Notes: generated by a model not told the origin, from the sequence alone. A stretch of 37,833 nt of DNA from Verrucomicrobiia bacterium (GCA_035605035.1 DATNHI010000168.1:1-37833); one strand, 5' to 3'. Shown: positions 3,924 through 37,833, numbered from the stretch's first letter. Made by a program: numbers and translations.

Positions 3924-3924
3924 G

Positions 3925-6996: not shown

Positions 6997-7045
6997 TACG
7001 ATTCGCATTGAGTAGAAGGAACAAAATGTTTAAGCTTCCCGACGC

Positions 7046-8080: not shown

Positions 8081-8086
8081 AACCCA

Positions 8087-9279: not shown

Positions 9280-9290
9280 AAATTAATGCT

Positions 9291-9872
9291 TCAATTCCAG
9301 GCCAGGTTTTCCGGCATTTGCGAGAGCAGTTTATTCCGCCAGCCGCCCTTGCGCTTGAGAATTCTCGACCAGAGTTGTTCGGCAGGCGTGTCAAAAACCA
9401 ACTCGAGCGACGCGGGAAATGTCACCCAGGCTTTGCGTTTGATTTCGTCTTCGAGCTGTCCGGCCGACCAGCCGGCGTAACCCGCGAACAGTTTTACCTT
9501 TTTCTGAGTGGAAAATGATTCGCCGACCTCCACCAGATCGTCGAGCGAATGGCCGAGCGCCAGATTCGGCAACACGTCAGCATCAGGAATGAAATTGTCC
9601 GTGTGCAAAAAGCTCAACGCGGTGGGCTGGACCGGTCCGCCGAGATACAGCGGCGATTCCCGGAGCGTGTCAGGCAAATCGGCGACGATCATCTCGCCGA
9701 CCTTTTTGCCGAGCGAGCGGTTGAGGACGAGACCGAACGCGCCCTCGGCGTCATGCTGGCAGATCAGCACGACCGTGCGCTGGAAAAAGGAGCCGCCCAG
9801 TTGTCCGCTGTCCAGCAACAACTGGCCTTTGAGGAATTTTCCCGGCGTGTTCACCAGCTTAATTTGCACCAC
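9291..9872 (-). CDS. yqgE: YqgE/AlgH family protein (UPF0301)
   Basis: 193 aa. Family-typical strings: FQRTVVLICQHDAEGAFGLVLNR, LYLGGPV, FAGYAGWSAGQLEDEI, W. The start is a GTG (complement of 9870-9872), so the exact start is uncertain. Confidence 0.85.
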   Translation of the reverse strand: MVQIKLVNTPGKFLKGQLLLDSGQLGGSFFQRTVVLICQHDAEGAFGLVLNRSLGKKVGEMIVADLPDTLRESPLYLGGPVQPTALSFLHTDNFIPDADVLPNLALGHSLDDLVEVGESFSTQKKVKLFAGYAGWSAGQLEDEIKRKAWVTFPASLELVFDTPAEQLWSRILKRKGGWRNKLLSQMPENLAWN

Positions 9873-10016
9873 CTTTGCCCGGCTGGCAAAAAGAAAACCG
9901 CCCGGGCCGCCGACGCAAAGAAAAACCGGCCTTTTTCTCTATTTTTCCAACACCACCGGGGTGTTCAGCCAAGGCGTCAAGGAAACCACTACCTCGCCGT
10001 TCAGGTGCCGCGAAAT

Positions 10017-11159: not shown

Positions 11160-11252
11160 GGTTTACTCCGTTTTCCAAAAAGGCCTGGACGGCGACGAAC
11201 CGGCATTGGTCCGTCACCGAATGTAACCAGAAAGCACCTCCCGCGCCAAAAA

Positions 11253-22785: not shown

Positions 22786-24531
22786 TTATGGCGCCGTATT
22801 TTGGCCCGGAGGCACGGCGGCCCACTCGCCCCGAATCACCTGCAGCAAACTCGGTGTTTTCGGCGGAAGTTTGAGCGGGTTGTCAAAATTGGCGTCGTAA
22901 GCCCAGTTGCGGACCGGCGGGTTATAAACGTTGGCCATTCCCCAAACATTGGTGGCATAGAGGCTGGGGAACATCTTGATCATCGAACCATTATAGGTGA
23001 ATGGCACCGCTGTCCAGGTTTCCAGAAAACGCGGGAAATTTTCCATGCCGCCGCTGTAATGTCCCAACGTGGTATCAACCGCGCCGGTCAGAATGGCGGC
23101 GTTGACGGTGGTGGCTGACGCTTTTCGCGAGGTCAGCGCGCTGGTGCTGTTCGCGTCCGTCCAACTATCCGAGAGAACTGTGATGGCGTCGGCCACCAGC
23201 GAAGCCGGCCGGGTGGTGGAGGTGTTGGTCGTACCCAGATTCGCGGAGTTGAATTGGTTATAGTCTTTCCAAACGTAGAGCGGACGCCCGGTCGCTACCG
23301 TCAGCCCGTTCGGCGGCAGATTGGTTCCGTTGTACACCCGAACCGCTCTCAAACTGGTGGCCGGCAACGTGCGGCTATCCAGTACATAGACAGAACTAAG
23401 AATCAGATTCGACCCGATGGCAGAGTAACGCAGACTGGAATTGGTCTGGCTCCAGGCCGCGAGATTCCCGATGTTGATGTCAATGGGCATGACGGTTTTC
23501 CCCTCACGCGCATCCGAAAAGCTGTTTGCGGTTGAGACAAACGTCGCCAGCTCATTGGTCGGGATGGGGGTCGCAAAGTTATTAAAATGCCCGCTGGTGG
23601 CGCTGATTCCGGCAGCCGAAGCCACCACAACCATGTCGCATTGATTGTAATACCGCAGCCGGCCGATGGGTGAGTTGGGGTCTTCCCCGAAGGGTGGCGG
23701 CTCGATGATTTCCCGGACCGCTTGCGGCGTGTTGGTGCTTCCGATGGGCAGGGTCAAGGACGAAACGGGAAAAACCGGTTGATTGGTTTGCGCATAGACC
23801 ACGCTGCCGACCGGCGCGCCGCGGGTATCGAGCGGGTCGCGTTGAAACAGGACGCTGATAACCGCAGTGACACTGGATCCAAAAGTCAGGGAGCTGTCCG
23901 GTTCGACGTAGAGTTCCCCGTTGGAATGCACACGTCCGGTAACGGTGAAAGGCTGACCGCAACTGATTTCCAGTTCACCCGAGGAATACATGGCAAACTG
24001 GAAGATGGGGATGCTGGCCAACTGCAATTGCTGCAGGACCCCCCCGCTGACGCTCTGCGGGCTGGCCGTATCCTGCGCGTGTGAAGCGATCGCGTAGATC
24101 GAAGCATATCCTTTCAAGCCGGCGTAAGTCGAGTCCGCCACAATGTAGCTGGTTCCAGGCGAGCGCTGCACATAAGTTTGGCCACTATTCCCGTTACCGT
24201 CATCAAATTCCCAAGTGCTCCAGTATGAGGAGTCCGACGATGTGGGCACTGTGTTCTGGCGATAAGAGCTCAGGTTGTTGCTGACCAGGCTTTCGCCACC
24301 GTACAGGTAATCACTGTTCATTCGACTCACCACTTTTTCCGTGGCTGCCTCCGCGGCCGCGACCGAACGGTTATATTGGATGGAACGGTACGTCAATTGG
24401 GTGTTGCTGGCCGACCATGACATCGCCGCCGCCAGCAAGGCCAGGGCAATCGCGCTCAGGATCAGGGTCAGCATCAGGGCGCTTCCATTCTGATCCCGTT
24501 TGCGAGTGTGAAAGGTGGTTTTCATGTTCAT
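22786..24531 (-). CDS. large PilX/GspK-like minor pseudopilin (no Glu+5)
   Basis: 581 aa. The N-terminus QNGSALMLTLILSAIALALLAAAMSWSASN is PilX_N/GspK-like. The start overlaps the stop of the upstream pseudopilin gene (ATGA at 24528-24531). Confidence 0.7.
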   Translation of the reverse strand: MNMKTTFHTRKRDQNGSALMLTLILSAIALALLAAAMSWSASNTQLTYRSIQYNRSVAAAEAATEKVVSRMNSDYLYGGESLVSNNLSSYRQNTVPTSSDSSYWSTWEFDDGNGNSGQTYVQRSPGTSYIVADSTYAGLKGYASIYAIASHAQDTASPQSVSGGVLQQLQLASIPIFQFAMYSSGELEISCGQPFTVTGRVHSNGELYVEPDSSLTFGSSVTAVISVLFQRDPLDTRGAPVGSVVYAQTNQPVFPVSSLTLPIGSTNTPQAVREIIEPPPFGEDPNSPIGRLRYYNQCDMVVVASAAGISATSGHFNNFATPIPTNELATFVSTANSFSDAREGKTVMPIDINIGNLAAWSQTNSSLRYSAIGSNLILSSVYVLDSRTLPATSLRAVRVYNGTNLPPNGLTVATGRPLYVWKDYNQFNSANLGTTNTSTTRPASLVADAITVLSDSWTDANSTSALTSRKASATTVNAAILTGAVDTTLGHYSGGMENFPRFLETWTAVPFTYNGSMIKMFPSLYATNVWGMANVYNPPVRNWAYDANFDNPLKLPPKTPSLLQVIRGEWAAVPPGQNTAP

Positions 24532-25136
24532 TCCAGTGCGCGCCGGGTCATGGAGGTTTCCAGCTTGTAATAATCCGCGCCTTGCATGAAACGCGCCGGT
24601 TGATAGAATTCAAGGGTGAGGTGGATCACCCGATTGTTTTGGTTGTTGGTCAACACATTCCCCGAAAAGTCCTGCGCGGTGAACGCGATCGTGTTGGTGA
24701 CCGAATCGGCCAGGATTTCAGCGGAGCCCGGCTGGTCGGTGGTTCGCCGGAAGCTCTGGTCCGATAAATTGACAAAATAGATGATGTAGCTGGCAGTATT
24801 GGTCGTAGGATAAACGAGCAGAGCGGTGCCCTGCTGCGTCTCCCCATTCAGCAGCCCGTCAAAAACACCATTCGTAATATTGCCAACCGACACGCTGTTA
24901 CAGGAGTGGATTTCAGTTGTCATTTTTTCGACCGTTTGGCGGGACCACGTGGTGATGTTGAGCTTGGTTGTATTGACTTGAAACATTCTCAAGCCAAACA
25001 GATTCGCGGCAATGATGCCGGCGAGCATCAGCAGAAACACCGCCATCGCAATGAGGATTTCCGGCAGGGTGAAACCTTTGTCCAGCACCGGCCTCCGGCC
25101 GCGATCTGAATTTGAAAATGGAACGTGAAGCTTCAT
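24528..25136 (-). CDS. prepilin-type N-terminal cleavage/methylation protein, GspJ/PilW-like minor pseudopilin
   Basis: 202 aa. DKG/FTLPEILIAMAVFLLMLAGII is a class-III signal with Glu at +5. It has ATGA overlaps with both neighbours. Confidence 0.8.
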   Translation of the reverse strand: MKLHVPFSNSDRGRRPVLDKGFTLPEILIAMAVFLLMLAGIIAANLFGLRMFQVNTTKLNITTWSRQTVEKMTTEIHSCNSVSVGNITNGVFDGLLNGETQQGTALLVYPTTNTASYIIYFVNLSDQSFRRTTDQPGSAEILADSVTNTIAFTAQDFSGNVLTNNQNNRVIHLTLEFYQPARFMQGADYYKLETSMTRRALE

Positions 25137-25600
25137 TGGTCGGGGGCGCGAATGGTTTCAATCGTGTTGGTGATCAATTGGGTCCCCATGAAATTCCAGA
25201 TGCAATCCACCCGAATTCTGCGGATCGGCGGGGCGAGTGAAATCTGGGAAATGGTCGTCTGAATCGTGGCCGACGTGCCTCCGGAACCGGATCCGGGCAT
25301 ATCCAGGGAAACGATCTTGTTCGGAAAATTCGTGGCCACCAACTGGTCCACAACCGGCCAGACGGAGGTATCCCATCGGGCGCTGTGCACCTCCTCGATG
25401 CGTTCCATCGCCCGGGCGCTCGCCGCCTGAACCAGTCCGCCCTTTACCGCAGCCGTCGTGCAGTAGATATATCCCTCAACGACTCCCCCCACGGTCAGCC
25501 CGGTGATGGCCAAGGCGACAACCACTTCCACCAGCGTCATTCCCGCCCGCCCGCGCGGTGCGAATCGAACGACCTTTTGATTTGAACACATGGTTTTCAT
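25133..25600 (-). CDS. prepilin-type N-terminal cleavage/methylation protein, GspI/PilV-like minor pseudopilin
   Basis: 155 aa. GRAG/MTLVEVVVALAITGLTVGGVV is a class-III signal with Glu at +5. Confidence 0.8.
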   Translation of the reverse strand: MKTMCSNQKVVRFAPRGRAGMTLVEVVVALAITGLTVGGVVEGYIYCTTAAVKGGLVQAASARAMERIEEVHSARWDTSVWPVVDQLVATNFPNKIVSLDMPGSGSGGTSATIQTTISQISLAPPIRRIRVDCIWNFMGTQLITNTIETIRAPDQ

Positions 25601-26200: not shown

Positions 26201-27784
26201 CTAATCCGTTCTCAACTCAAACACCTGCTGCTGGAATTTGGAGATGTCCACGGTAACCTGTGAATTGAGCGCAACGAGCAGGCGGAAAATGTCGCGGTTC
26301 CAGCTCACATTGGGATCCAGTGCGTCGGCGACCGGGTCGGTGATCTCGTAATTCCTGTCGGCGTAACGAATGGTCCGCAGGGGCGGCTGAAGTGGTTCTT
26401 TTACATGGCTCCATTCAATGCGAATGACCGGATGTTGTTCCGAGTTTGGAACGACCGAGCGGAATTGGTGATTAGTCAGCACGAGCGTGTCAAAGGCCGG
26501 TTGTTCGCTCGCGACGGCTTCCATCGCCCGGCCAAAACTGCGGAGCACCAGCCGCGTTCGCGCCTGCGCCTCGCCACTGACCTTGGTCTGCACGGAGATG
26601 CCTTCGTTGAGCAGTCCGATGACGGTCAGGACGGCCATCGTGTCGTCCGCAATGACTTCCTGGCTCTTGGAATTGGTGGCGTTAAAATTCGCATTCGTCA
26701 GCGATTGAACAATCGCCGGAACCAAAGCCAGTTGAGCGGGCGCCAGGCTGAAATTGACCCCCGACTGAACAAGCCTGCGGTTGCCCTCCGACACAATTTG
26801 ATTCCCAGCGGGGTTTGAGACGGCCGGTGATTGGACAACCGCAACCACATCGGTGTTAAGGACGAAAATCGGCATTTCGCGGCGAAGGCCGAGCTGCCAC
26901 GTGCCGTTCGTTTGGGTCAGCGTCCAGCCCTTGTCTTGAGCGTCCGCGTAATCTTTGAGCGACGGACTGCCTTTTTCACCCGGCGCACTGTTTCCACCCG
27001 ATCCTTGCTCCGGATTTTCGGGTTGTGAAGCATTCCGGCCACCCGCTCCCGGCTGGCCGCCGGCTTTTGCGCCCGAGCCTGCGTTGAAAGAGACCGGTCC
27101 CATATTTTCAGGCGGCTGGGTGACGGCCCGGAGCGAGAGATAGCCGCGCTGCTGCAATTCGCGAAGGATGGCACATGCGCGCAAATATTTTCCGTAAGAT
27201 TCCGGCGTGCCCCGCGTCGGGGAATTGACCAGCACCAATTCCTGGTTGTTCGGCAGCGTCGTTTCCACGCGCTCAATCAGCACCCGCATCAACTGGTCAA
27301 TCGGGTAGCCCTGCTGGTAGAGCGTGAAAAAAACGTCGGTGGAAATCGGCTGCAAGACCTGTTTGGCCACAGCTTCGTTGTTCAGCGGAATAAATTGAAA
27401 TTCCGGATTGATTGTGCGTGTGATCGTTCCGCTGGCGTTGTAACCAAACACCGATTGAAATACCCGCGTGATGGCACCACCGGTGGGAGCGGTTTTGGAG
27501 TCGGTGAACGTGCCGGTGTTGCCGACACCGGCTGAACCGCTGACCGAAAGCCGATCATCAATTGCGCCGATGGCGAGGTAATAGGCTGGATGGCCGTTTT
27601 CCAGTCGCGCGAGATTGAGCAACATCTGTTCGTTGAGCGCATCGGCGTAGGCGGTGTTGTAGTCGCGAAAATGTGCGTGCATGGCCGAGGTCGCGCAGGA
27701 AGTCAGCAGTGGCAGCGCGCACAGACACAGGCATAAGCAAATGTGGATTAGTAAGTTAGACTGGATTAATGGATTTGCTTTCAT
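26201..27784 (-). CDS. lipoprotein, unknown family
   Basis: The track ORF starts at a TTG (27826). The ATG at 27782-27784 gives MKANPLIQSNLLIHICLCLCLCALPLLTS/C, with an LTSC lipobox. An internal Gly/Pro/Ser-rich low-complexity linker (GSGAKAGGQPGAGGRNASQPENPEQGSGGNSAPGEKGS) is present. No domain recognised. Confidence 0.75.
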   Translation of the reverse strand: MKANPLIQSNLLIHICLCLCLCALPLLTSCATSAMHAHFRDYNTAYADALNEQMLLNLARLENGHPAYYLAIGAIDDRLSVSGSAGVGNTGTFTDSKTAPTGGAITRVFQSVFGYNASGTITRTINPEFQFIPLNNEAVAKQVLQPISTDVFFTLYQQGYPIDQLMRVLIERVETTLPNNQELVLVNSPTRGTPESYGKYLRACAILRELQQRGYLSLRAVTQPPENMGPVSFNAGSGAKAGGQPGAGGRNASQPENPEQGSGGNSAPGEKGSPSLKDYADAQDKGWTLTQTNGTWQLGLRREMPIFVLNTDVVAVVQSPAVSNPAGNQIVSEGNRRLVQSGVNFSLAPAQLALVPAIVQSLTNANFNATNSKSQEVIADDTMAVLTVIGLLNEGISVQTKVSGEAQARTRLVLRSFGRAMEAVASEQPAFDTLVLTNHQFRSVVPNSEQHPVIRIEWSHVKEPLQPPLRTIRYADRNYEITDPVADALDPNVSWNRDIFRLLVALNSQVTVDISKFQQQVFELRTD

Positions 27785-27952
27785 ATGATTGAGAATGCCA
27801 ATGTCAGTTTTCGGAATGGAACGCAAGCATTATTTTTCTTGACGGTTGAGCGCGACTGCAACAGGGGTTCTTTATGACACCGCGCCCGACCATCTTCATT
27901 TCGGCGGCAAGCAGAGAGCTGAAAAGCGCGCGGCAACGGGTCTCCAACACCG

Positions 27953-27968
27953 GGCAACTCCGCGGCCA
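27953..27968 (-). promoter_or_regulatory. sigma54-type promoter candidate for the lipoprotein gene
   Basis: The minus strand reads TGGCCG-cggag-TTGCC. GG is the complement of 27966-67 and GC the complement of 27954-55 (GG-N10-GC). It lies ~125-170 nt upstream of the two candidate starts. Confidence 0.4.
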
Positions 27969-28083: not shown

Positions 28084-31000
28084 CTACTGTCCCAACCAAA
28101 CGGCCCGGTAAAAGAAAGTATTCCCATTGGTGGCGGGTTGCGGCAGGAGGAGGTTAAAGCCATTGGTCAGGATGGTGTTGGTGCTTACGGGCAACCATGA
28201 CCCGCTGTTCAGCGAAGTCCGGCGCTCCAGTCGATAAACCGTGCCGGTCGTGCCGGTGATGCCCAGCCCAACACTATAGCCCGCCACCAGCATCGGATTG
28301 GTCACCGTATAAAACCCTGCATAGACCGTAATTTGGCCAGGCTGCACTGTCACCGTCTGATTGGTCGGCAGATTCCAACCGTTTATCGGCTTGAACTGGA
28401 TCACCACCGCGTTGGTCGAAAACACCGCCCGCACGTAGTTGGTCGCGCTCGAATAGGTGGCATCCCCCTGCAACCGCCAGCCCGCACCGGCCTGCACCGC
28501 CGCCGCTGGCCCCAACTGCCACTGGACATATCCCGGATTGCTGGCGCTGATGGCTTGATTGGGGATAATGGTGATCACCCCGCCACCCGTGTTGTTCGTG
28601 CCGGTGTCACCCAACGTCGCCGCATTCGTGATCAGGTTCACTACCTCGCTGTCGATCGCCCGCACGGCTGACGCATACGGCACAGCGCCATTGAACAACG
28701 TCCCCAAATACACCCCTGCTGGATAGTAATAGCCGTTGAACTGTACATACAGCGGCCCGCCGCTGTTGCCCGGATAACTGAGAAGCCACGCCGCTATGTA
28801 AACTTGCTGATTGTTCACCGGGTCCGCAGCCTGACTCAAAGGATACGGCTGCGGCCCGGTCTGATACATCACGCCCGGCACGATGCTGGCGTCGCCAAAC
28901 AACGAGCCATCCACCGGGTAGCCCACCAGCATCTTCAGGCTCGTGCTCGTCAGCCAGGAGTTGGGCGACGCATCCGAGGGCAAGTAGCCGCCATAGCCAC
29001 CTCCCGCCACCGGCGACAGGAAATACAGCGCCGCCACGTCCAGGTTCCGTGACTGGGGACTGGACTGGTCCGGACTCAGGCCACTCAACAAGTCATTGGT
29101 CCGCTGGGCGGCATAGCCGCTCAACACATACCAGCCCCGCGCTGGCAACGGCTCCGGGGCAAACACACCTTCCTCCTCCTGAAAATACCAATAGACCTGG
29201 CTCACGTAGGACAACGTCTCGTCGTTGAAGACCAGATGCGCCGCCGTCAACACCACGTTGGTCTGCACGGCCACCCCGCTGCCGTAGCCCACATCCGATT
29301 GCAACTGGCCGTTGAACCCGAAGGGATAATCGGTCAGGTCACTAAGGTAATTGGCAGGTACCGGCACAGGCAGCAGAACCCCGCCCGGTGGCGAGGCGGC
29401 AAGCAGGTAACTGGCCGAAATCACTCGGGCCAAACCGGCATACACCTGCACCGCCTGGCTGGCAGGCTTCGAGTAGTTGGCCACCGGCTCGAACTCGATG
29501 AAATAGATGTCCGGCAGCAAGTTGGTCGCCGTGGAGCCTGGCGCCCGCCAGGTCGTCTCTCCCAGGAACCGCCAGCCGGCACCAGCGGGCGAGTTGGGCT
29601 GAATGTTGACCGTCAGCGTACCGTCGTTCGTGTCCCCGGCAACGAGCGTAGGGTAATATTGGTTGGTTACGAACGTGGTAACACCGCCCGCGACTGCTGC
29701 CATAAAGTTGGTCGAGATGGTCAGGTAACCGGGCAAATTGCGAAACTCGACGGGGTAATTGCCGGCGACCAGATTGCTCGCCAAGTCTCCGCTGTTGCGC
29801 CAGGCGATTTCCCAGGGAAAGCGCCATTGCCCGTCGGCCTCAGGCGGCAGCAAGGTCACGACAAGCTGCCCATTCATGGGCGGCTGGGTGTAAGGCACCG
29901 GATCGGTTGGCGTGTATGCCGTGAACACCCCTTTGCGAATCGTGTTGTTGTAAGTATCCGCCACGTAGAGAACGCCTGCGTCGTCCACCGCTAAACCGTA
30001 GGGCAAGTCAAACAACGCGGCGCTGCCCGCCCCGTCGGCGCTGCCATAGGTCCCGGCCACGCCACCAATCGTGCTGACGACCCAGTTGGTGCCGACGGGA
30101 GTTATCTTCCGAATCGTGTTGTTGTACGTATCCGCCACATAGAGATTGCCCGCGCTGTCCACCGCGATACCAAAAGGTTTGTCAAACTGAGCGTTCGTTC
30201 CCGTGCCGTCGGCGCTGCCTTGGACCATGGCCTGCCCGGCAATAGTGCTCACTACCCAGTTGGTTCCAGCGGGCGTTATCTTCCGGATCGTGTCGTTGGT
30301 AAAATCGGCCACGTAGAGATTGGTCGCGCTGTCCACCACGATCCCACCCGGCTTGTTAAAGTGCGCATTGGTTCCCGTGCCGTCAGTGAAGCCATCAGTC
30401 CCAGCCAGCCCGGCAATGGTGCGCACCACCCAGTTGGTGCCCACCAATGTCATCTTCCGAATCGTGTCGTTGTAGGTATCCGCCACGTAGAGATTGGTTG
30501 CGCTGTCCACGGCGATGCCGCCTGGATAATTAAACCGCGCCACGCTGTTGGTTCCGTCCGCGCTGCCATTGATTCCGGCCCTACCGGCGATGGTACTCAC
30601 TATCCCCGCCGGCGTGATCTGCCGAATGGTGTGGTTGTATGTGTCCGCCACATAAACATTGCCGGCGCTGTCAACCGCCACGCCGCCTGGCCCGTTAAAC
30701 AACGCGTAACTGCCCGGCCCATCATTGGTGCCCGAAACCTCGGCCAACCCGGCCATCGTGCTCACCAAACCTGCCGAGGTGATCTGCCGAATGGTGCAAT
30801 TCAGTTCATCCGCCACGTAGAGATTGCCGTCGCCATCCACCGCGATACCTTCAGGACTCCAAAATCGTGCGGCGCCGCCTGTGCCATCAGCGCTGCCGAC
30901 ACTTCCGCCGCCAGCCAGGGTGCTCACCACCCCGGCTGAGGTGATCTTCCGAATTGCATCGTTGAACGTATCCGCCACATAGATATGGCCTTCCGGGCCT

Positions 31001-32097
31001 GCCGCGACACCCTCGGGCGTACCAAAGTACGCGTTGGTGCCAGTCCCGTCCACAAAGGCGGGCGTCAAGACCACTCCAGCCAAAGTGGTCACGATCCAGT
31101 TGGTTCCAGCCGGCCGGATCTTCCGAATGGTGTCGTTGGAAGAATCCGCCACGTAGAGATTGGTGGCGCTGTCCACCGCGATCCCGCCAGGTTCGTAAAA
31201 GCGCGCGACACCGTTCGTGCCATCCTTGCTGCCGATGTTGCCAGCGGAGCCGGCGATGGTGCGCACCACCCAGTTGGTACCTGCCAGCGTGAGCTTGCGA
31301 ATTGTGTCGTTGTAGGTATCCGCCACATAAACATTGCCGGCGCTATCAACCGTGACGCCAGCGGGCCCGTCAAACCGCGCAGTGCCGTTGGTTCCGTCCA
31401 TGCTGCCGATGCTGCCGGCGGAGCCGGCGATGGTGCTGACCACCCAGTTGGTGCCCGCTGGTGTTATCTTCCGAATCGTGTTGTTCTTGAAATCGGCCAC
31501 ATAGACATTGGTCGCGCTGTCCACTGCAACCGCCGCAGGACCGTGAAACTGCGCGGCACTGCCCAGACCGTCGGCGCTACCGGCGTTGGTGGCCAGACCG
31601 GCGATGGTGGAAACCACCCAGTTGGTCCCTACCGGAGTCACTTTCCGAATGGTCTGATTACGGTAATCCGCCACATAAACATTGCCTCCATTATCAATTG
31701 TGACGCCTTCGGGGATATTAAACCGTGCGGCGCTGTTTGTGCCATCGGCGCTGCCGGAAGCCCCGGCAAAGCCAGCGATGGTGCTCACCACTCCCGACGG
31801 TGTGATCTTCCGAATGGTGTTATTCAAAGTATCCGCCACATAGACATTGCCGTTCGTGTCTGCCCCCACTCCGTAAGGGACGGCGAATTGCGCCACGCTG
31901 CCCACGCCATCAGCGCTGCCGGAGCCAGAGGAGCCAGCGAAGGTGCTGAAAGTGTAGGCAGCGGCATAACTGGACTGCGCCGCCGCTGGCAGGGTGAAAA
32001 GACTGGTAAACGACATCGCCAACAAGGCGAGCCATGTTCCCAAACATCCCCGTTCAGATTTGGCAGCCGGTCGCTTGGCTGGATTGATTTCGTTCAT
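28084..32097 (-). CDS. giant secreted NHL-repeat (12 blades) / trypsin-like serine protease fusion protein, paralog A
   Basis: 1337 aa with signal-like N-terminus LALLAMSFTSLFTLPAAAQ. It has 12 repeats of ...GsaDGt..aArF..P.GvavDsaGNlYVADt.NdTIRKI... (about nt 29930-31960). Two beta-sandwich domains carry G.WRF motifs. The S1 protease triad contexts are LTAAHLV (His codon 29236-38), NLDVAAL (Asp 29038-40) and GNSGGPL (Ser 28762-64). A third sandwich follows, and the C-terminal tail is ...FFYRAVWLGQ. Confidence 0.9.
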   Translation of the reverse strand: MNEINPAKRPAAKSERGCLGTWLALLAMSFTSLFTLPAAAQSSYAAAYTFSTFAGSSGSGSADGVGSVAQFAVPYGVGADTNGNVYVADTLNNTIRKITPSGVVSTIAGFAGASGSADGTNSAARFNIPEGVTIDNGGNVYVADYRNQTIRKVTPVGTNWVVSTIAGLATNAGSADGLGSAAQFHGPAAVAVDSATNVYVADFKNNTIRKITPAGTNWVVSTIAGSAGSIGSMDGTNGTARFDGPAGVTVDSAGNVYVADTYNDTIRKLTLAGTNWVVRTIAGSAGNIGSKDGTNGVARFYEPGGIAVDSATNLYVADSSNDTIRKIRPAGTNWIVTTLAGVVLTPAFVDGTGTNAYFGTPEGVAAGPEGHIYVADTFNDAIRKITSAGVVSTLAGGGSVGSADGTGGAARFWSPEGIAVDGDGNLYVADELNCTIRQITSAGLVSTMAGLAEVSGTNDGPGSYALFNGPGGVAVDSAGNVYVADTYNHTIRQITPAGIVSTIAGRAGINGSADGTNSVARFNYPGGIAVDSATNLYVADTYNDTIRKMTLVGTNWVVRTIAGLAGTDGFTDGTGTNAHFNKPGGIVVDSATNLYVADFTNDTIRKITPAGTNWVVSTIAGQAMVQGSADGTGTNAQFDKPFGIAVDSAGNLYVADTYNNTIRKITPVGTNWVVSTIGGVAGTYGSADGAGSAALFDLPYGLAVDDAGVLYVADTYNNTIRKGVFTAYTPTDPVPYTQPPMNGQLVVTLLPPEADGQWRFPWEIAWRNSGDLASNLVAGNYPVEFRNLPGYLTISTNFMAAVAGGVTTFVTNQYYPTLVAGDTNDGTLTVNIQPNSPAGAGWRFLGETTWRAPGSTATNLLPDIYFIEFEPVANYSKPASQAVQVYAGLARVISASYLLAASPPGGVLLPVPVPANYLSDLTDYPFGFNGQLQSDVGYGSGVAVQTNVVLTAAHLVFNDETLSYVSQVYWYFQEEEGVFAPEPLPARGWYVLSGYAAQRTNDLLSGLSPDQSSPQSRNLDVAALYFLSPVAGGGYGGYLPSDASPNSWLTSTSLKMLVGYPVDGSLFGDASIVPGVMYQTGPQPYPLSQAADPVNNQQVYIAAWLLSYPGNSGGPLYVQFNGYYYPAGVYLGTLFNGAVPYASAVRAIDSEVVNLITNAATLGDTGTNNTGGGVITIIPNQAISASNPGYVQWQLGPAAAVQAGAGWRLQGDATYSSATNYVRAVFSTNAVVIQFKPINGWNLPTNQTVTVQPGQITVYAGFYTVTNPMLVAGYSVGLGITGTTGTVYRLERRTSLNSGSWLPVSTNTILTNGFNLLLPQPATNGNTFFYRAVWLGQ

Positions 32098-32112
32098 GGG
32101 AAAAAGGTTGAA

Positions 32113-35100
32113 CTAGTATCCCAACCAAACGGCCCGGTAAAAGAACGCATTTCCATTGGTGGCGGGTTGCGGCAGGAGGAGGTTAAAACCGGTCGTCAGG
32201 ATGGTATTGGTGCTGACGGGCAACCATGACCCGCTGCTCAGCGAAGTCCGGCGTTGGAGCTGATAAACCGTGCCGGTCGTGCCGGTGATGCCCAGCCCAA
32301 CGCTTTTGCCCGCCACCAATACCGGATTGGTCACCGTGTAAAACGCGGTATAGGCCGTAATTTGTCCAGGCTGCACTGTCACCGTCTGGTCGGTCGGCAG
32401 GTTCCAGCCCGCTACCGGTTTGAATTGCACCCCAAACGCGTTGGTGGACCGCACCGGCCATGTAAAGTTAGTAGCCGACCCGTAATCATTATCATTCGTG
32501 TCTCCTTGCAAGCGCCAGGCTGCCCCAGCCGCAACCGCCGCCGGCGGAGCCAACCAGAATTGCAGACAACCAGGACTATTGGAGTTAACGGCCTGACTCG
32601 GGATGAAGGTGATGACGCCGCCACCTGCGTAGTTCCCGCCCGTGTATCCCGATGCCGCCGCATTAGTGATCAGGTTCACTACGTCGCTGTCAATCGCGCG
32701 CACTGCCGACGCATAGGGCGTGGTGCCGTTATACAACGACCCCAGATACACGCCTGCCGGATAATAATAACCGTTGTACTGCACATACAGCGGCCCGCCA
32801 CTGTTGCCCGGATAACTCAAGAACCACGTTGCGGTATAAACCTGCTGGTCGGCCACCGGATCGGTGGCCAGCGTGAGTGGATACGGTTGCGGATCGGTCT
32901 GATACATCTCGCCCGGCACGATCGTTGTTTTCTCAAACTGCGACCCGTCCACCGGATAACCCACCAGCATCTTCAGACTCGTCCCCGTCAGCCACGGATT
33001 GGGCGTCGCGTCTGAAGGCAGATAACCCCCGTAACCACCGCCAGGCCCAGCCACCGGCAACAGAAAATACAATGCCGCCACATCGAGGTTGCGGGATTGT
33101 GGTGTGGAGGTGTCCGGCGCGTAAACTTTCAGATCGTTGGTCCGTTGCGCGGCGTAGCCGCTCAACACATAGCAGCCGCGCGCCTGCAACGGGTCCGGCT
33201 CAAACACATTCGCCTCCTCTTGAAAATACCAGTAGGCCTGGCTGGCATAAGACAAGGTCTGGTCGTTGAACACCAGATGCCCCGCCGTCAGCACCACATA
33301 GGCTTGCACCGCCACCCCGCTGCCGTAACCCACATCCGTCTCCAACTGCCCGTTGAACCCGAAGGGATAATCCGTCAGATCACTGATATTGGCCGGCGGC
33401 ACCGGCGTGGGCAACAGCGCCCCAGCGGGGGCCGGTTGCGCTAAAAGATAGTTTTCAGATACATAGGTCGTCAAACCGGCCTGAACCTGCACGGACAAGT
33501 TGGGTGGGGTGACCCGGTTACTGACCGTGGCAAACCCAATCAAGTAGGTGCCGGCCGCCAGATTGGTGCTGTAATCGGAAGGATACCAGGGCGGGCTGCT
33601 GCCAAGGAACCCCCAGTAGGAGCCACTGGGCGGGTTTGGGCCAAGATCCACCTTCAGCGTGCCGCCGTTGTTCGTATCCACGGTGCCGATGGTCGGGTAA
33701 TACTGATTGGTGATGGATGCCGATTGGTTGTTGTCCAACTCTACTGGCTTAGTCAGAGGAATTACGATCCAGCCTGGAATGGCGCGAAATTCGATGGGGT
33801 ATCCGCCCGCCACCAAATTGCTCGCCGTCTGACCATTGGTACGCCACGCGACCTCCCACGGGAACCGCCATTGTCCGTTGGCCTCTGGTGGCAACAAGGT
33901 CACGGTCAGCGAAGAGCTCATCGCGGGCTGGCTATATGATACTGCATTCGCCGCCAGGTAGGCCGTGAACACTCCCTTGCGAATCGTGTTGTTTCCTGTA
34001 TCCGCCACATAGACAATGCCAGCACTGTCCACCGTGATGCCTTCAGGGCGGTTAAATCGCGCGGCATTGCCTGCTCCGTCCGCGCTGCCAAAGACACCGG
34101 GCAATCCGCCTATCGTGTTCACCACCCAGTTCGTACCGACAGGAGTTATCTTCCGAATCGTGCCGTTCGTGGCGGCGTCCGTAACGTAAAGATTGCCCGA
34201 GCCATCCACGGCTATGCTGGTAGGAGACGCAAACAACGCATTCGTTCCCGTGCCGTCCGTGCTGCCTTGAATCCCAACCAAGCCGGCGATTGTGCTTACC
34301 AGCCAGCCGGAGCCTTCCGGTGTATTTACCAGTGTAATCTTTCGAATCGTGCTGTCGCCATAATCCGCCACATAAAGATTAGTGGAGCTGTCCACCGCCA
34401 GACCATGCGCCTTGTAACCCGACGCGATGGTGGTGACCTCCCAGCCGGCGGGGCCTTCCGGTGTAATCTTTCGAATCTTGAGGTTGTAGGTGTCCGCCAC
34501 ATAGAGATTGCCCACACCATCGACGGCGACGCCGGAAGGCCCGCTAAACCGCGCATTGTTCCCGTAGCCGTCATTGGCCCCAGAACTTCCAGCCAAGCCC
34601 GCCAAGGTGTTCACCACCCCGGCAGAAGTGATTTGTCGAATTGTGTTATTGACCGTGTCCGCCACATAGAGATTGCCCGCGCCATCCACGGCGACGCCGG
34701 AAGGCCCGTTAAACCGCGCATCGCTCCCGGCACCGTCATTGGTCCCGGAACTTCCGGCCAAGCCCGCCAGGGTGTTCACCACCCCGGCAGAGGTAATTTG
34801 TCGAATTGTGTTATTGGCCGTGTCCGCCACATAGAGATTGCCCGCGCTGTCTGCTGCAACACCGCCAGGTAAGGAAAACCGCGCGGCGCTGCCCGTGCCG
34901 TCCGCACTCCCACTTACCGAACCGGCGATGGTCCTGACGACTGCCGCCGAGGTAATTTTGCGGATCGTGTAGTTGCCTGAGTCCGCCACATAGAGATTGC
35001 CCGCGCCGTCCGCCGCGACGCCACCAGGATAGGAAAATCGTGCCGTGTGGCCGGTGCCGTCCGTGCTGCCTTGAATCCCAGCCAAACCGGCGATAGTGCT

Positions 35101-36261
35101 AACCACCCAGTTAGTGCCCACTGGCGTGATTTTCCGAATGGTGGAATTGCCGGAATCAGCCACGTACAGGTTGCCCCCGCTGTCCACGGCAATACCACTT
35201 GGTGCATAAAACCGCGCGGCGCCATTCGTGCCGTCGGCACTCCCGTGATTCCGCGCCGACCCGGCGACCGTGCTTACCACCCAGTTGGTGCCCACCGGCG
35301 TGATTTTTCGAATGGTTTGGTTGTACGTATCGGTGACATACACATTGCCCGCGTTGTCCACCGCAATACCACTTGGTGTATTAAACCGCGCGGTGCCGTT
35401 CGTGCCGTCGGCGCTGCCGGATGCACCGGGAAATCCCGCTATGGTAATTACCACTCCTGCCGGTGTAATTTTTCGGATCGTGGAGTCGCCGACGTCCGTC
35501 ACATAGACATTGCCATTGCTGTCCAAAGCGACGTTCGCAGGACTCACAAACTGTGCGACACTGCCCACACCGTCGGCGCTGCCGGAGGAAGGGTAGCCCG
35601 CGAAGGTGGTCCAAGTATAAGCAGCGGCATACGTCTGTGGTGGCAGGGTGGTTAAAGTAATATTGTCGATCGTCAGGGTGTCGGTGTTGCCGGCGCCGCC
35701 CCACTGCCAGGAATTGAGTTGAAAGTTGAACTGCCAGGTCACGCCGGTTGGGCTGTTCGTCGTGATGCTGCCCAGGTTTACGCTGAAATGCTGCCAGGTA
35801 TTGGCTGCGGTCAACTGCTCGTTGGTTGCCGCGTTTATGACTGGCCCTGTGCCGCCAAAATAATTGGACGGCCAGGTTTGTATCATAAACTGGATGTTGG
35901 CCGCCTGACTGCCTTTGGCATCAAACGACAATACGTAGTCCGCCGGGTTCGTGTCCGTGTTCCCGGAAACCGTCAGCAACTGCACCTGCCCGCCGTAATA
36001 GTCACTCCCGGTTGTTGGCGTCATTGTCTCCTGCCAGCAGCCGTTCGGGTTTCCGCCGCTCGCCAGCACAAAGTTGGTGCAACCGGTCGGGCTGCCTCCC
36101 GAATACGAGCCGGTGCTGAACGCGCCGGTATAACCGCCGTCGAAGTCCTCGTCGAATATTGTCGTCTGGGCAGCGGCGGTGAAACCACCGAGCACGACTG
36201 CCAGCCACGCCCCTGAACAGATTTTGCCGGTGGCCATGATACAGAAGAGAGTTTTTTTCAT
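32113..36261 (-). CDS. giant secreted CBM-like / NHL-repeat (10 blades) / trypsin-like serine protease fusion protein, paralog B
   Basis: 1382 aa with a signal-like N-terminus. It has a ~190-aa N-terminal jelly-roll-like domain (about nt 35640-36180) and 10 NHL blades (about nt 33975-35630). The C-terminal half is colinear with paralog A. Triad contexts are LTAGHLV (His 33277-79), NLDVAAL (Asp 33082-84) and GNSGGPL (Ser 32800-02). It ends ...FFYRAVWLGY, and its stop is 15 nt from the ATG of paralog A. Confidence 0.9.
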   Translation of the reverse strand: MKKTLFCIMATGKICSGAWLAVVLGGFTAAAQTTIFDEDFDGGYTGAFSTGSYSGGSPTGCTNFVLASGGNPNGCWQETMTPTTGSDYYGGQVQLLTVSGNTDTNPADYVLSFDAKGSQAANIQFMIQTWPSNYFGGTGPVINAATNEQLTAANTWQHFSVNLGSITTNSPTGVTWQFNFQLNSWQWGGAGNTDTLTIDNITLTTLPPQTYAAAYTWTTFAGYPSSGSADGVGSVAQFVSPANVALDSNGNVYVTDVGDSTIRKITPAGVVITIAGFPGASGSADGTNGTARFNTPSGIAVDNAGNVYVTDTYNQTIRKITPVGTNWVVSTVAGSARNHGSADGTNGAARFYAPSGIAVDSGGNLYVADSGNSTIRKITPVGTNWVVSTIAGLAGIQGSTDGTGHTARFSYPGGVAADGAGNLYVADSGNYTIRKITSAAVVRTIAGSVSGSADGTGSAARFSLPGGVAADSAGNLYVADTANNTIRQITSAGVVNTLAGLAGSSGTNDGAGSDARFNGPSGVAVDGAGNLYVADTVNNTIRQITSAGVVNTLAGLAGSSGANDGYGNNARFSGPSGVAVDGVGNLYVADTYNLKIRKITPEGPAGWEVTTIASGYKAHGLAVDSSTNLYVADYGDSTIRKITLVNTPEGSGWLVSTIAGLVGIQGSTDGTGTNALFASPTSIAVDGSGNLYVTDAATNGTIRKITPVGTNWVVNTIGGLPGVFGSADGAGNAARFNRPEGITVDSAGIVYVADTGNNTIRKGVFTAYLAANAVSYSQPAMSSSLTVTLLPPEANGQWRFPWEVAWRTNGQTASNLVAGGYPIEFRAIPGWIVIPLTKPVELDNNQSASITNQYYPTIGTVDTNNGGTLKVDLGPNPPSGSYWGFLGSSPPWYPSDYSTNLAAGTYLIGFATVSNRVTPPNLSVQVQAGLTTYVSENYLLAQPAPAGALLPTPVPPANISDLTDYPFGFNGQLETDVGYGSGVAVQAYVVLTAGHLVFNDQTLSYASQAYWYFQEEANVFEPDPLQARGCYVLSGYAAQRTNDLKVYAPDTSTPQSRNLDVAALYFLLPVAGPGGGYGGYLPSDATPNPWLTGTSLKMLVGYPVDGSQFEKTTIVPGEMYQTDPQPYPLTLATDPVADQQVYTATWFLSYPGNSGGPLYVQYNGYYYPAGVYLGSLYNGTTPYASAVRAIDSDVVNLITNAAASGYTGGNYAGGGVITFIPSQAVNSNSPGCLQFWLAPPAAVAAGAAWRLQGDTNDNDYGSATNFTWPVRSTNAFGVQFKPVAGWNLPTDQTVTVQPGQITAYTAFYTVTNPVLVAGKSVGLGITGTTGTVYQLQRRTSLSSGSWLPVSTNTILTTGFNLLLPQPATNGNAFFYRAVWLGY

Positions 36262-36357: not shown

Positions 36358-36431
36358 TTTTTAATCTTTCCAGCACATCAAGTCAATTAGAATCGCGTAA
36401 TTATTGTAATCGCTCCAGCACATTAAGTTAA
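36358..36431 (-). promoter_or_regulatory. tandem sigma70-like promoter candidates for the NHL-protease operon
   Basis: The minus strand reads TTGACT-N17-TAAAAA (complement of 36381-86 and 36358-63) and TTAACT-N17-TACAAT (complement of 36426-31 and 36403-08). Each -35 box and spacer lies inside one of the 33-bp repeats. Confidence 0.4.
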
Positions 36432-36446
36432 TTTGAATTGCATAAT
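36369..36446. repeat. two 33-bp direct repeats, 45 bp apart, in the divergent control region
   Basis: TCCAGCACATCAAGTCAATTAGAATCGCGTAAT (36369-36401) and TCCAGCACATTAAGTTAATTTGAATTGCATAAT (36414-36446) are 28/33 identical. Confidence 0.85.
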
Positions 36447-36485: not shown

Positions 36486-37637
36486 ATGTCCCCGGCACCC
36501 AATAACCCCGCCCGATTTTTTTGGATTTGTTTGAGTTTGTCCGTCCTGTTGGCATTGGCGGCGTGGTGGTGGCTTCGGCCCTCGGCCGTCCCCGTCGCGC
36601 GCACAGCGCCGATGACGAATGCGGCTCCGGCCATTTCCCAGGCGACGACCAATCCATCGCGGGTGGCTGCCAATCCTTTGCCAGTCGCCAGCAAAACTTT
36701 GTTGATAACCAAAGACGCCGCCGCGTCACGGCAACGGTTGGCCGAGTTGAGCCAACGGCTCGCAACGCTGCCGCCGAAAGAGGCAGCGGCGGCGATTCGT
36801 CAGTTTCTCGATTCCAAAGCGGATGCCCCGACCGGCCAGGGTTTTAAAATCGGCGCGAACGGGGCTTTGAGCAGTGCGCCGACGTTCCGGGTTTTTCTGC
36901 TGGATCAACTGGGGCGTCTTGATCCGGCAGCGGCGGCTGATTATTCCAAAGTGATTCTAAGCAGCATGGATTCACCTGATGAATGGGCCGTAGCTTTGCG
37001 TAACCTCGCTTGGGGCGACACGAGTGACGAAGGGCGCGCTTTGCTGGAACAGAAAACAAGCGAAATGCTGCAATACGAACCGTGGCAGCAAAACCCCTCG
37101 GCCGGATTTCTGGAAGCGTTCGACGTGGCAGTTTATCTGGGCGGCACCAGCCTGATACCCACGTTGACGGATTTTGTCCAGCAACAGGACAATCCCGCCG
37201 TGGCGCACGCGTCCTACCTGGCATTGGACCGGCTGGTCATCAATAATCCGACAGCGGCGCTGGCCGCGCTTTTGGCCGATACCGGTTTGATGCAAGGCCG
37301 TGAGGCGACGCGGGCGAATTATTTTGCGCGGGCCGATGTGGGTAATCCGCAGCAACGGCAGATTCTGGAAAATTACCTGCTCAATCCTCAAATCAGTCCG
37401 GCGGAAATTAATACGTTTGCCGGCCTTTTCCCAAACGCCAATTACATGATTTCGCCCAATCTGCTCACGCAAACGCAAACCCCCAACCACGACGCGTTGG
37501 TGAGCCGCGATGCAGCCTCGTTGAACGTCGTACAGCAGTGGCTTGCCGATCCGCGCTTTGCCCAATTGCGCCCGAGCCTTGAAAAGACTGAAGCGCGCCT
37601 GGCGGGTTACGTGCAGCAGGAAAATCAGGGCCAGTGA
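36486..37637 (+). CDS. membrane-anchored hypothetical protein (helical, Ala/Leu-rich)
   Basis: 383 aa with ATG at 36486 and an N-terminal anchor FFWICLSLSVLLALAAWWWL. No family recognised. It is transcribed divergently from paralog B. Confidence 0.65.
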   Translation: MSPAPNNPARFFWICLSLSVLLALAAWWWLRPSAVPVARTAPMTNAAPAISQATTNPSRVAANPLPVASKTLLITKDAAASRQRLAELSQRLATLPPKEAAAAIRQFLDSKADAPTGQGFKIGANGALSSAPTFRVFLLDQLGRLDPAAAADYSKVILSSMDSPDEWAVALRNLAWGDTSDEGRALLEQKTSEMLQYEPWQQNPSAGFLEAFDVAVYLGGTSLIPTLTDFVQQQDNPAVAHASYLALDRLVINNPTAALAALLADTGLMQGREATRANYFARADVGNPQQRQILENYLLNPQISPAEINTFAGLFPNANYMISPNLLTQTQTPNHDALVSRDAASLNVVQQWLADPRFAQLRPSLEKTEARLAGYVQQENQGQ

Positions 37638-37663
37638 CGTCAGAACAGGAAGTTCAATCTTGC

Positions 37664-37833
37664 TTCAACCACCCGGCAGCGGGGCAGTTCCTGATAAGGC
37701 GTGAGCGGGTTCAATTTATAGTTCTCGCCCGTCAGATTGAGGAGGCCCAGCAGCAATTCCGCGCGGCGGTGCATGAAATAGTAACCGGCGAACAGATTGG
37801 GTTGGAAGAAATGATCGCCCGGTTCGGCGGGAG
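37664..37833 (-). CDS. partial CDS (C-terminal 55 aa of a protein whose start lies right of the window)
   Basis: Not in the track (edge-truncated). The minus-strand frame is open from the window end to a TGA (complement of 37664-37666). Translation: PAEPGDHFFQPNLFAGYYFMHRRAELLLGLLNLTGENYKLNPLTPYQELPPLPGG*. The LLNLTGENY string is reminiscent of outer-membrane barrel proteins, but that link is weak. Confidence 0.35.

Follow-up and report, generated by a model that had tools for sequence, protein, structure and literature searches.

Genes A and B, which lie in tandem in a 37,833-nucleotide stretch of DNA from a Verrucomicrobiia bacterium (hereafter the window), encode large multidomain proteins with an S1-type serine protease domain. 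The usual neighbours of this gene family encode an NsrA-like outer-membrane receptor, a CHASE2 receptor and a 383-residue membrane protein, g383, which suggests proteolysis-coupled envelope signalling and not a stand-alone degradative enzyme. Our best explanation, still tentative at a probability of about 0.45, is that an S1 protease with an exchangeable head is coupled to envelope signalling by the NsrA-like/CHASE2 pair and g383. Linkage of NsrA/CHASE2 to secreted S1 proteases and a helical protein appears to be undescribed, and the statement of the first-pass annotation that no characterised example of the protein architecture was known was upheld.

Both reading frames were found on the minus strand, separated by the 15 nucleotides originally annotated, with the following layout:

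28084-32097, minus strand: gene A, 1337 aa, with a signal peptide at aa 1-40
29932-31977: A, NHL region with 12 blades (aa ~41-722)
within 29383-29931: A, two beta-sandwiches before the protease (aa 742-813 and 826-895)
within 28603-29382: A, S1 protease domain (aa ~922-1162)
29236-29238, 29038-29040 and 28762-28764: A, catalytic codons of H954, D1020 and S1112, respectively
28087-28602: A, C-terminal sandwiches (aa 1174-1262 and 1269-1334), ending in FYRAVWLGQ
32113-36261, minus strand: gene B, 1382 aa, with a signal peptide at aa 1-31
35617-36168: B, N-terminal domain of ~185 aa (aa ~32-215), without an assigned family
33976-35616: B, NHL region with 10 blades (aa ~216-762)
33427-33975: B, two beta-sandwiches before the protease (aa 763-945)
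32641-33426: B, S1 protease domain (aa ~946-1207)
33277-33279, 33082-33084 and 32800-32802: B, catalytic codons of H995, D1060 and S1154, respectively
32116-32640: B, two C-terminal sandwiches, ending in FYRAVWLGY

The overall domain architecture and the tandem paralogy described in the first-pass annotation were borne out by Pfam scans, motif counts and an AlphaFold2 model. The NHL family (PF01436) was matched with E values of 3e-76 in A and 4e-71 in B, and TEN_NHL with 1e-40 and 5e-37, respectively. Counting of the blade motif [LVI][YF]V[ATS][DE], which recurs with a period of 53-62 residues (typically ~55-58), reproduced the annotated counts of 12 blades for A and 10 for B. The ten blades of B are not divisible into two sixes. 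The HMM searches confirmed the NHL repeats; the protease remained sub-threshold, and neither the sandwiches with their G.WRF motifs nor the N-terminal domain of B matched a Pfam family, which leaves "PEGA-like" and "CBM-like" as tentative labels. The AlphaFold2 model, which covers residues 723-1337 of A (mean pLDDT 82), consists of two sandwiches, the protease domain and two C-terminal sandwiches, with uncertain placement of the domains relative to each other (pTM 0.57). What had been annotated as a third sandwich plus a tail is thus two domains, while the presence of a C-terminal sandwich and of the FYRAVWLG end stood.

The protease domains of A and B contain the motifs LTAAH/LTAGH, NLDVAAL and GNSGGPL, with His-Asp-Ser spacings of 66 and 92 residues in A. 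The three catalytic residues stand in the canonical contexts previously noted and are invariant across an alignment of 60 homologues, and the triad is intact in 119 of the 137 protease domains of the fetched loci. In giant proteins with two protease modules the second one is catalytically dead. A Foldseek search with the A model placed the domain in the chymotrypsin fold, as had been proposed: the best match was the glutamyl endopeptidase 1p3c (E 2.8e-9, target TM 0.78), and 832 more PDB chains matched at E<=0.001, the top-ranked ones being S1 proteases. From the intact triad and the modelled fold, A and B are predicted to be catalytically competent. The Pfam scores of the two proteins were below the cut-offs for both Trypsin_2 (PF13365; 20.3 and 24.9 bits, cut-off 27.6) and Trypsin (PF00089; 18.0 and 15.3 bits, cut-off 20.6), and a PDB profile search gave no significant sequence match for the protease, the best (E 0.057) lying around the Ser motif. 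Judged by its sequence, the protease is a very divergent S1 clade. It shares the chymotrypsin double barrel, the His-Asp-Ser order and the GxSGGP oxyanion motif with the S1B glutamyl endopeptidases (Bacillus intermedius 1p3c and V8-like enzymes), but is only ~17% identical and is located mid-protein between Ig-like sandwiches, in proteins of 1300-5000 residues.

A and B are members of a multi-copy family spread across Verrucomicrobiota. The C-terminal module was found in 226 homologues with varied heads, including Calx-beta, BspA-type LRR, Big_7 and InlB-B-repeat domains (NHL, Calx-beta, LRR_5, Big_7 and Flg_new_2 were verified with Pfam). In some homologues the protease is N-terminal or stand-alone, and in some BACON_2, MBG_2 or DUF11 is inserted C-terminal of it. 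The protease domain alone retrieved 686 cluster representatives at 50% identity (397 at E<=1e-30), most of them proteins of 1000-5400 residues; a few database homologues carry the label "V8-like Glu-specific endopeptidase". As unrelated heads carry the same protease module, the NHL propellers are one interchangeable head type and not a structural cap, and the earlier suggestion of substrate capture or gating by propellers is not supported as an organising principle. The head seems to be a binding domain that can be swapped. In prolyl oligopeptidase and DPP-IV (family S9), too, a serine peptidase shares its polypeptide with a beta-propeller; there the catalytic domain is an alpha/beta-hydrolase, and one propeller of 7 or 8 blades sits directly over it as a cap. 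In A and B, in contrast, the catalytic fold is chymotrypsin-like and two sandwich domains lie between it and the 10-12 NHL blades. This fold, together with the replacement of the propeller in homologues, rules out an S9-type propeller-gated peptidase.

Three further features of the window lie upstream of gene B:

36359-36446, no strand: direct repeats of 43 nt, two in tandem, between the divergent genes B and g383
36486-37637, plus strand: g383, 383 aa, in which an N-terminal transmembrane helix (aa 8-29) is followed by a disordered linker (aa 32-60) and then by an all-alpha ARM/HEAT-like solenoid (aa 64-381)
37640-37833, minus strand: last 63 codons and stop of the gene of "c1174", an NsrA-like FecR-TPR-beta-barrel protein (HMM E 2.5e-25)

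When the ORFs of 69 protease-anchored loci were clustered for recurrent neighbours, exactly four families were conserved, namely the protease, g383, the outer-membrane protein and CHASE2; the other clusters recurring in at least 5 of the 69 loci were all shadow ORFs. Among the 24 protease loci with full 10-kb flanks, g383 and the outer-membrane protein were each present in 16 and CHASE2 in 12, and in the reverse scan the protease was found at 19 of the 25 g383 loci with such flanks. All four families occur together in 25 fetched loci, of which, the scans being overlapping, an estimated ~15-18 are distinct. The arrangement is divergent in Limisphaerales-like genomes and co-directional in Verrucomicrobiales (outer-membrane protein, CHASE2, g383, protease), i.e. 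the linkage persists despite changed gene order and orientation. The linkage is also kept in distant lineages (MAGs labelled Myxococcota, Binatia, Opitutales/Opitutaceae and Chthoniobacterales), in which g383 directly adjoins a protease that stands alone or is N-terminal. It counts against our explanation that half of the protease loci are orphan copies with the partners absent within 10 kb, and that about a quarter of the full-flank g383 loci are without a protease.

Across all loci, g383 was present at 34 of the 69 protease loci and the protease at 39 of the 64 g383 loci, which makes the 383-residue membrane protein a conserved partner in both directions and bears out its grouping with the pair in the first-pass annotation. 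It has no Pfam family and is probably anchored in the inner membrane with the solenoid facing the periplasm. At five g383 loci without a protease, other giant secreted proteins adjoin (RCC1/Ig/Calx-beta, LTD-CotH and PKD). The partner of g383 may therefore be large secreted proteins generally and not the protease, which also speaks against our explanation.

The proposed system had originally also included a lipoprotein on the other side of the pair, and this part was not conserved: apart from the window it was seen in the nearest relative, L001, alone, and the pseudopilin genes downstream likewise fail to recur among the protease loci. The 541-residue protein in question has a lipobox (LLTSC), and its suggested sigma-54 link amounts to a GG-N10-GC core with two mismatches. 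Each 43-nt repeat contains a sigma-70-like promoter match directed at B, and both are kept in the two nearest relatives; on this sequence evidence they are a candidate promoter/operator. Two propeller proteins at the left edge of the window had been read as a sign that secreted propeller machinery has expanded in this lineage:

1936-3156: SGL-family propeller protein
running off base 1: partial WD40-like ORF

Both exist; they belong to unrelated families and are unlinked, being 25 kb from A and B with housekeeping genes between, and the idea of a common expansion is not supported.

The gene of "c1174" is convergent with g383 and is truncated at the right-hand end of the window. In the locus of the nearest relative L070 a CHASE2-TIR gene is next, and the window ends short of the corresponding position. 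The first-pass annotation missed both the NsrA-like protein and the CHASE2 receptor just beyond the edge, the latter being seen in relatives. In full-length relatives of "c1174", FecR and TPR domains are joined to a TonB_dep_Rec-like barrel, the barrel match being weak (22-32 bits). Pfam scans of three full-length cluster barrel proteins and of NsrA found no Plug domain; with the weak barrel match, a TonB-dependent transporter was rejected. A full-length relative aligned collinearly with Sinorhizobium meliloti NsrA (BLASTP E 2e-15), and the best plasmid-database matches were Sinorhizobium/Ensifer records, the annotated one (S. meliloti pSymB) being nsrA. The two proteins share FecR, TPR and a C-terminal barrel and are similar in length (1174 and 1200 aa), but their identity is only ~23%, and the window holds just the last 63 codons.

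In S. meliloti, nsrA adjoins cyaK (CHASE2 and cyclase), and NsrA and CyaK perceive a protease-sensitive protein signal, free ribosomal protein uL2 (PMC7529298, PMC13001267). Campylobacterota, too, have clusters in which a FecR outer-membrane protein is encoded together with a CHASE2 cyclase and a TPR protein (PMC9239204). Similarly, the barrel gene in the clusters of the protease family adjoins a CHASE2 receptor, mostly CHASE2 with a cyclase (~685 aa; CyaK has 649 aa). In 35 clusters the output was most commonly a cyclase (21) and was TIR in 5; a Ser/Thr kinase also occurs. Unlike these clusters with their S1 protease, g383 and additional kinase or TIR outputs, the S. meliloti locus contains neither an S1 protease nor g383; proteolysis is thus not required for such signalling, which argues against our explanation.

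We infer the localisation of these proteins (including export beyond the periplasm), their substrates, the direction and nature of the signal, and their function as follows. A and B would be Sec-exported and composed of an exchangeable ligand-binding head, here NHL propellers and in B an extra N-terminal domain, and a constant module of two Ig-like sandwiches, an S1 (glutamyl-endopeptidase-like) protease and two sandwiches with the FYR tail. The heads would bind extracytoplasmic macromolecules, and the protease would turn binding into proteolysis, either by processing a protein ligand or by cleaving a partner, for which g383 and the FecR-TPR region of the outer-membrane protein are candidates. 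The NsrA-like/CHASE2 pair would sense this event and signal to the cytoplasm. The constant module may be recognised by g383 as a tether, chaperone or inhibitor, in which case one g383 could serve several paralogues with different heads.

It could be argued that A and B are degradative endopeptidases for nutrient acquisition, with heads docking on polymers, the barrel importing the products and CHASE2 regulating expression, as a protein-utilisation analogue of the polysaccharide-utilisation loci. The heads are indeed of kinds that typically bind substrates or glycans (NHL, Calx-beta, BACON_2, LRR, to which a CBM-like domain in B may be added), many paralogues occur per genome, also in tandem arrays, and the barrel resembles TonB-dependent receptors in Pfam. 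We nevertheless consider this unlikely, as the barrel protein showed no Plug domain in Pfam and is homologous to a signal-perception protein (PMC7529298), CHASE2-TIR and CHASE2-kinase outputs would be odd for a nutrient regulator, and the dead second protease of the double-module giants points to a regulatory and not a bulk-degradative role. A role of the barrel as an outer-membrane translocator or anchor, with g383 as a periplasmic chaperone for large secreted proteins, the protease acting in self-processing or release from the cell surface and the CHASE2 gene as a regulator, would explain why many cargo-like proteins occur per single g383 and barrel protein, why g383 is also found beside protease-less giants, and why other secreted proteins also end in the constant C-terminal part with the FYR tail. 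The tail is, however, far wider in distribution than the gene cluster, orphan protease genes lie distant from any barrel or g383 gene, no likeness to known secretion-system components was seen, and the characterised barrel homologue is a receptor and not a translocator (PMC7529298), all of which makes export quite improbable.

The heads could also detect foreign cells or lysis products and set off a response through TIR, cyclase or kinase, as a system of defence or kin discrimination would. This would fit the 5 of 35 clusters with CHASE2-TIR, among them the nearest relative of the window, the tandem arrays, the rapid diversification of the heads, and the fact that the NsrA/CyaK signal is a protein found in lysates of many organisms (PMC7529298). 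We find such a conflict role hard to favour, since the commonest output is a cyclase, mobile-element and defence-island features are absent around A and B, and the only significant match to a PADLOC model came from the generic TIR domain in the CHASE2-TIR protein; neither g383 nor the barrel protein had any match, and the protease module had only LmuA (E 0.0098, sub-significant, without an aligned stretch). That there is no system at all, only two expanded secreted proteins whose neighbours are kept by inheritance alone, would agree with the orphan half of the family loci and the non-conserved lipoprotein and pseudopilin genes. It is very improbable given a linkage that is reciprocal, extends over several orders, reaches at least one MAG whose label is outside Verrucomicrobiota, and has survived changes of order and strand.

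Regulated proteolysis in the envelope is part of FecR-type/anti-sigma signalling, and serine-protease cascades act upstream of the TIR receptor Toll in Drosophila. By analogy, the signalling cluster proposed here would likewise combine an extracytoplasmic serine protease, a FecR-domain protein and a transmembrane receptor, in some cases with TIR; only the FecR and TIR domains are homologous, and cleavage here is putative. A complete "recognition-protease-receptor" pathway, in which binding of foreign or released macromolecules by the exchangeable heads gives a proteolytic signal to the NsrA-like receptor and from there to a CHASE2 TIR, cyclase or kinase, is a doubtful extension of this explanation. 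If true, its logic would resemble that of the serine-protease cascade upstream of Toll, and CHASE2 domains would gain a kind of input that has long been missing, namely peptide or protein ligands generated by proteolysis.

A and B are arranged head to tail with a gap of 15 nt between them. These two genes and the other features of the window considered here are as follows.

Features of the window
1 to ~470, minus strand: partial WD40-like ORF running off the left edge, with a signal peptide followed by WD40-like repeats
1936-3156, minus strand: SGL-family propeller with an FYR/FFR-type tail (…TAKFFRLLLN)
24528-25600, minus strand: two adjacent small pseudopilin-like proteins with prepilin-type N-terminal methylation motifs
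26201-27826, minus strand: 541-aa lipoprotein ORF, lipobox LLTSC after an internal Met
28084-32097, minus strand: A, ORF of 1337 aa
32113-36261, minus strand: B, ORF of 1382 aa
36359-36446: two tandem direct repeats of 43 nt each, in the divergent intergenic region between B and g383
36486-37637: g383, ORF of 383 aa
37831-37643, minus strand: last 63 residues of the barrel protein (HMM E 2.5e-25), convergent with g383

Both A and B start with a hydrophobic signal sequence ending AAAQ, a signal peptide of the Sec type. NHL repeats were recognised in the two proteins by Pfam (E 3e-76 for A and 4e-71 for B), and counting of the blade motif gave 12 blades in A and 10 in B, with a period of 53-62 residues. 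The Pfam scan assigned no family to the two G.WRF sandwiches, the C-terminal region or the N-terminal ~185 residues of B, which leaves the earlier labels PEGA-like and CBM-like unconfirmed, and with NCBIfam the full A and B gave sub-threshold NHL-type matches only. The protease motifs LTAAH/LTAGH, NLDVAAL and GNSGGPL are present and place the catalytic triad at H954, D1020 and S1112 of A and at H995, D1060 and S1154 of B. Identity between A and B is highest in the protease (77 %) and the C-terminal sandwiches (74 %), lower in the propellers (64 %) and lowest in sandwiches 1-2 (50 %). At the DNA level, comparison of the constant modules (28087-29931 with 32116-33975) gave 41-55 % identity in the second sandwich and the post-protease linker and 80-90 % in the protease core and the last ~330 nt, the longest identical stretch being 40 nt. 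Behind this patchy identity lies either constraint that differs along the module or a degree of gene conversion at the 3' end.

For the isolated protease region the Trypsin_2 matches were sub-threshold, yet they extended over the profile between the His and the Ser. PDB chains were searched with the protease domain, both as a single sequence and as a profile, and no significant match was obtained. The constant module (A residues 723-1337) was considered at the level of the fold, using an AlphaFold2 model built from an alignment of 60 homologues (mean pLDDT 82), in which two beta-sandwiches are followed by a central domain and two more sandwiches. The best Foldseek match of the central domain was the glutamyl endopeptidase of Bacillus intermedius (E 2.8e-9, target TM 0.78), and many further S1 proteases followed among the 832 chains matched at E<=0.001. 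Of the comparisons with PDB proteins, that of the folds alone was successful. The His, Asp and Ser are invariant across the 60 aligned homologues. The chymotrypsin fold with correctly aligned catalytic residues that the first-pass annotation had proposed is thus borne out, and its description of paired giant genes for NHL-propeller proteases agrees with the ORFs, repeats, motifs and fold found here.

The protease belongs to a large family. The C-terminal module had 226 homologues in a large protein collection, almost all unnamed and the closest 74 % identical, and the protease domain alone gave 686 cluster representatives at 50 % identity (397 at E<=1e-30), most of them 1000-5400 aa long and some with two protease domains. 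These proteases form a discrete, very divergent S1 clade of about 700 clusters at 50 % identity that is missed by current domain models. The heads carried by the constant module vary: NHL repeats are the commonest, and Calx-beta, BspA-type LRR, Big_7 and InlB-B-repeat heads also occur, while some homologues have BACON_2, MBG_2 or DUF11 insertions after the protease. Since the same protease module bears unrelated heads, the propellers are most readily understood as binding domains that can be exchanged. This speaks against the earlier suggestion that the propeller gates or caps the active site, as it does obligatorily in the prolyl oligopeptidases. In the double-module giants of the Verrucomicrobiales (~2700-4800 aa; L057-L061, L064, L068 and L115), His, Asp and Ser are kept in the first protease domain and lost in the second, and these proteins are predicted to combine an active protease and a pseudo-protease in a single chain.

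Scanning of one genome for each species yielded 69 protease loci, nearly all labelled Verrucomicrobiota (Limisphaerales- or Pedosphaera-like, Chthoniobacterales, Opitutales and Verrucomicrobiales); a few metagenome-assembled genomes (MAGs) were labelled Acidoferrum, Bifidobacteriaceae or Enterobacteriaceae. Tandem arrays and several protease copies per genome are common. The closest relative of the window is a soil MAG (L001/L070, 88-90 % identity). In L001 the orthologues of B and A are overlapping ORFs (427-7788 and 7706-11851), and a much longer stretch separates the two protease modules than in the window; the additional length may come from a fusion, from an extra head or from a frameshift in the long-read assembly. 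The cultured Luteolibacter marinus NBU1238 has a protease gene of the family on a contig that ends upstream, before any partner genes, and the full cluster is present in Haloferula-type genomes (MAGs).

The FYR/FFR tail domain of A and B is also the last domain of unrelated secreted proteins, among them many ORFs in L004, L014, L029, L030, L033, L036, L091 and L101, and in the window the SGL-family propeller. It had no match in Pfam or NCBIfam, and it may serve generally for sorting or anchoring in Verrucomicrobia. The second secreted propeller reported at the left edge of the window does exist, as the partial ORF at 1 to ~470, but its repeats are WD40-like and unrelated to NHL.

When all ORFs of the 69 loci were clustered and those in five or more loci were taken as recurrent, exactly four conserved families were obtained: the protease proteins, g383, the ~1174-aa barrel protein and a ~685-aa CHASE2 receptor. 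The remaining recurrent clusters were shadow ORFs of these four. With purpose-built HMMs, applied to protease loci with full 10-kb flanks, g383 and the barrel protein were each found in 16 of 24 loci and CHASE2 in 12. In the reverse direction, with g383 as the anchor, 19 of 25 loci contained the protease, 17 the barrel protein and 11 CHASE2. All four families occur together in 25 fetched loci; as the forward and reverse scans overlap, we estimate about 15-18 distinct places. For each g383, several genomes have about three or four protease genes.

Gene order and strand vary by lineage. Relatives of the window have g383 and the protease genes in divergent orientation, and in Verrucomicrobiales the barrel protein, CHASE2, g383 and a ~2700-3000-aa protein with two protease modules follow each other on one strand. 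Farther afield, in genomes that include MAGs labelled Myxococcota and Binatia, g383 and a protease of this clade, either stand-alone or N-terminal, are ~40-135 nt apart. What looked like a fusion of g383 with the protease in L120 is an artefact: a high-GC frame happens to be free of stops, and the two genes are adjacent and separate. That the linkage outlasts rearrangement argues for function, and mere inherited synteny is very improbable.

A system around the protease had been proposed earlier, and it does exist, with partners other than those suggested; that interpretation is thus supported in part. The 541-aa lipoprotein, one of the proposed members, had a tblastn match in L001 only and was rejected as a member; its ORF matched no family. 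Upstream of its gene no sigma-54 consensus was found at <=1 mismatch; a GG-N10-GC core seen by eye at 27952-27966, TGGCCGCGGAGTTGC, has two mismatches to the consensus. The pseudopilin-like genes, the 581-aa ORF without family that follows them, the response regulator and the sigma-54 activator showed no link to the protease family elsewhere. In the B/g383 intergenic region, the two 43-nt repeats are 81 % identical with 45-nt spacing, both are kept in the two closest relatives, L070 and L071, and each includes a match to a sigma-70-like promoter that is oriented towards B.

The window ends within the barrel gene, and its relatives describe the complete protein: ~1174 aa, in which a FecR domain and TPRs are combined with a TonB-dependent-receptor-like beta-barrel. 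The best matches in the plasmid collection were Sinorhizobium and Ensifer records, and in the annotated one, S. meliloti pSymB, the gene is nsrA. Pairwise alignment with Sinorhizobium meliloti NsrA is collinear (E 2e-15), and by this sequence comparison the barrel protein is homologous to NsrA. Both have ~1200 aa, with FecR and TPRs before the C-terminal region; the C-terminal barrel was detected here in the cluster protein, whereas for NsrA it is a prediction from the literature (PMC7529298). Directly after nsrA in S. meliloti lies cyaK, encoding CHASE2 plus a cyclase. NsrA and CyaK are needed to perceive a protease-sensitive protein signal, which is free ribosomal protein uL2, present in plant, yeast and bacterial lysates (PMC7529298, PMC13001267). 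NsrA/CyaK is the one studied CHASE2 pathway, and the mechanism of its response to the protein is unknown (PMC7529298). No ligand of CHASE2, a sensor domain of wide distribution, has so far been identified (PMC5192318). Related pairings reported elsewhere are the clusters of FecR outer-membrane protein, CHASE2 cyclase and TPR protein in Campylobacterota (PMC9239204) and the LysM-FecR protein paired with a CHASE2 kinase in Burkholderia (PMC5192318). Of the 35 CHASE2 partners in the fetched loci, 21 have a cyclase as output, 10 a Ser/Thr kinase and 5 a TIR domain, and these outputs interchange (L009, L070, L071 and others). In the closest relative of the window a CHASE2-TIR gene comes next after the barrel gene.

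At least 841 clusters of sequences are homologous to g383, and all of them lack both a Pfam domain and an informative name. The model of g383 (pLDDT 87) begins at the N-terminus with a transmembrane helix, which is followed by a disordered linker and then an all-alpha solenoid, and the fold search gave only weak ARM/HEAT-like neighbours (E>0.01, TM ~0.25-0.3), from which a function is not assignable. The charge distribution over 53 homologues favours an N-in orientation, which would make the solenoid periplasmic. Some homologues have no protease nearby (L087, L091, L101, L104, L105, L112 and L116), and at five such loci g383 stands beside other giant secreted proteins, with RCC1/Ig/Calx-beta/Laminin_G, LTD plus CotH kinase, or PKD/RCC1 domains.

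We tentatively propose a joint action of the protease proteins and the NsrA-like/CHASE2 perception pair. The heads would bind macromolecules outside the cytoplasm, the protease would process the ligand or a partner, and the barrel/CHASE2 pair would relay the proteolytic event; g383 may serve as a tether, chaperone or inhibitor by binding to the constant module. For this whole model, including the role of g383, we assume a probability of roughly 0.45. The cluster might instead be a protein-utilisation locus, which we consider unlikely. The giant secreted proteins beside g383 at the five protease-less loci would fit a dedicated export or anchoring route, a reading to which we give a rather small chance. 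A similarly small chance is left for a danger- or conflict-sensing system, to which the TIR variants of the CHASE2 partner point, but apart from the generic TIR domain no PADLOC defence model matched the cluster.

NHL propellers, S1 proteases and the NsrA/CHASE2 pair are known kinds of components. Literature on CHASE2 with FecR, CHAT, trypsin-like or Verrucomicrobia contained the NsrA, Campylobacterota and Burkholderia FecR-CHASE2 pairings and did not describe the present cluster with its protease. The combination thus appears to be undescribed in the searchable literature, as do the g383 family and the divergent protease clade. The phylum-wide linkage of the NsrA-like/CHASE2 pair to head-swapping secreted proteases leads to a concrete, testable hypothesis, namely that CHASE2 signalling is fed by proteolysis of extracellular or periplasmic proteins, and the cluster provides a testable handle on the input to CHASE2 receptors.
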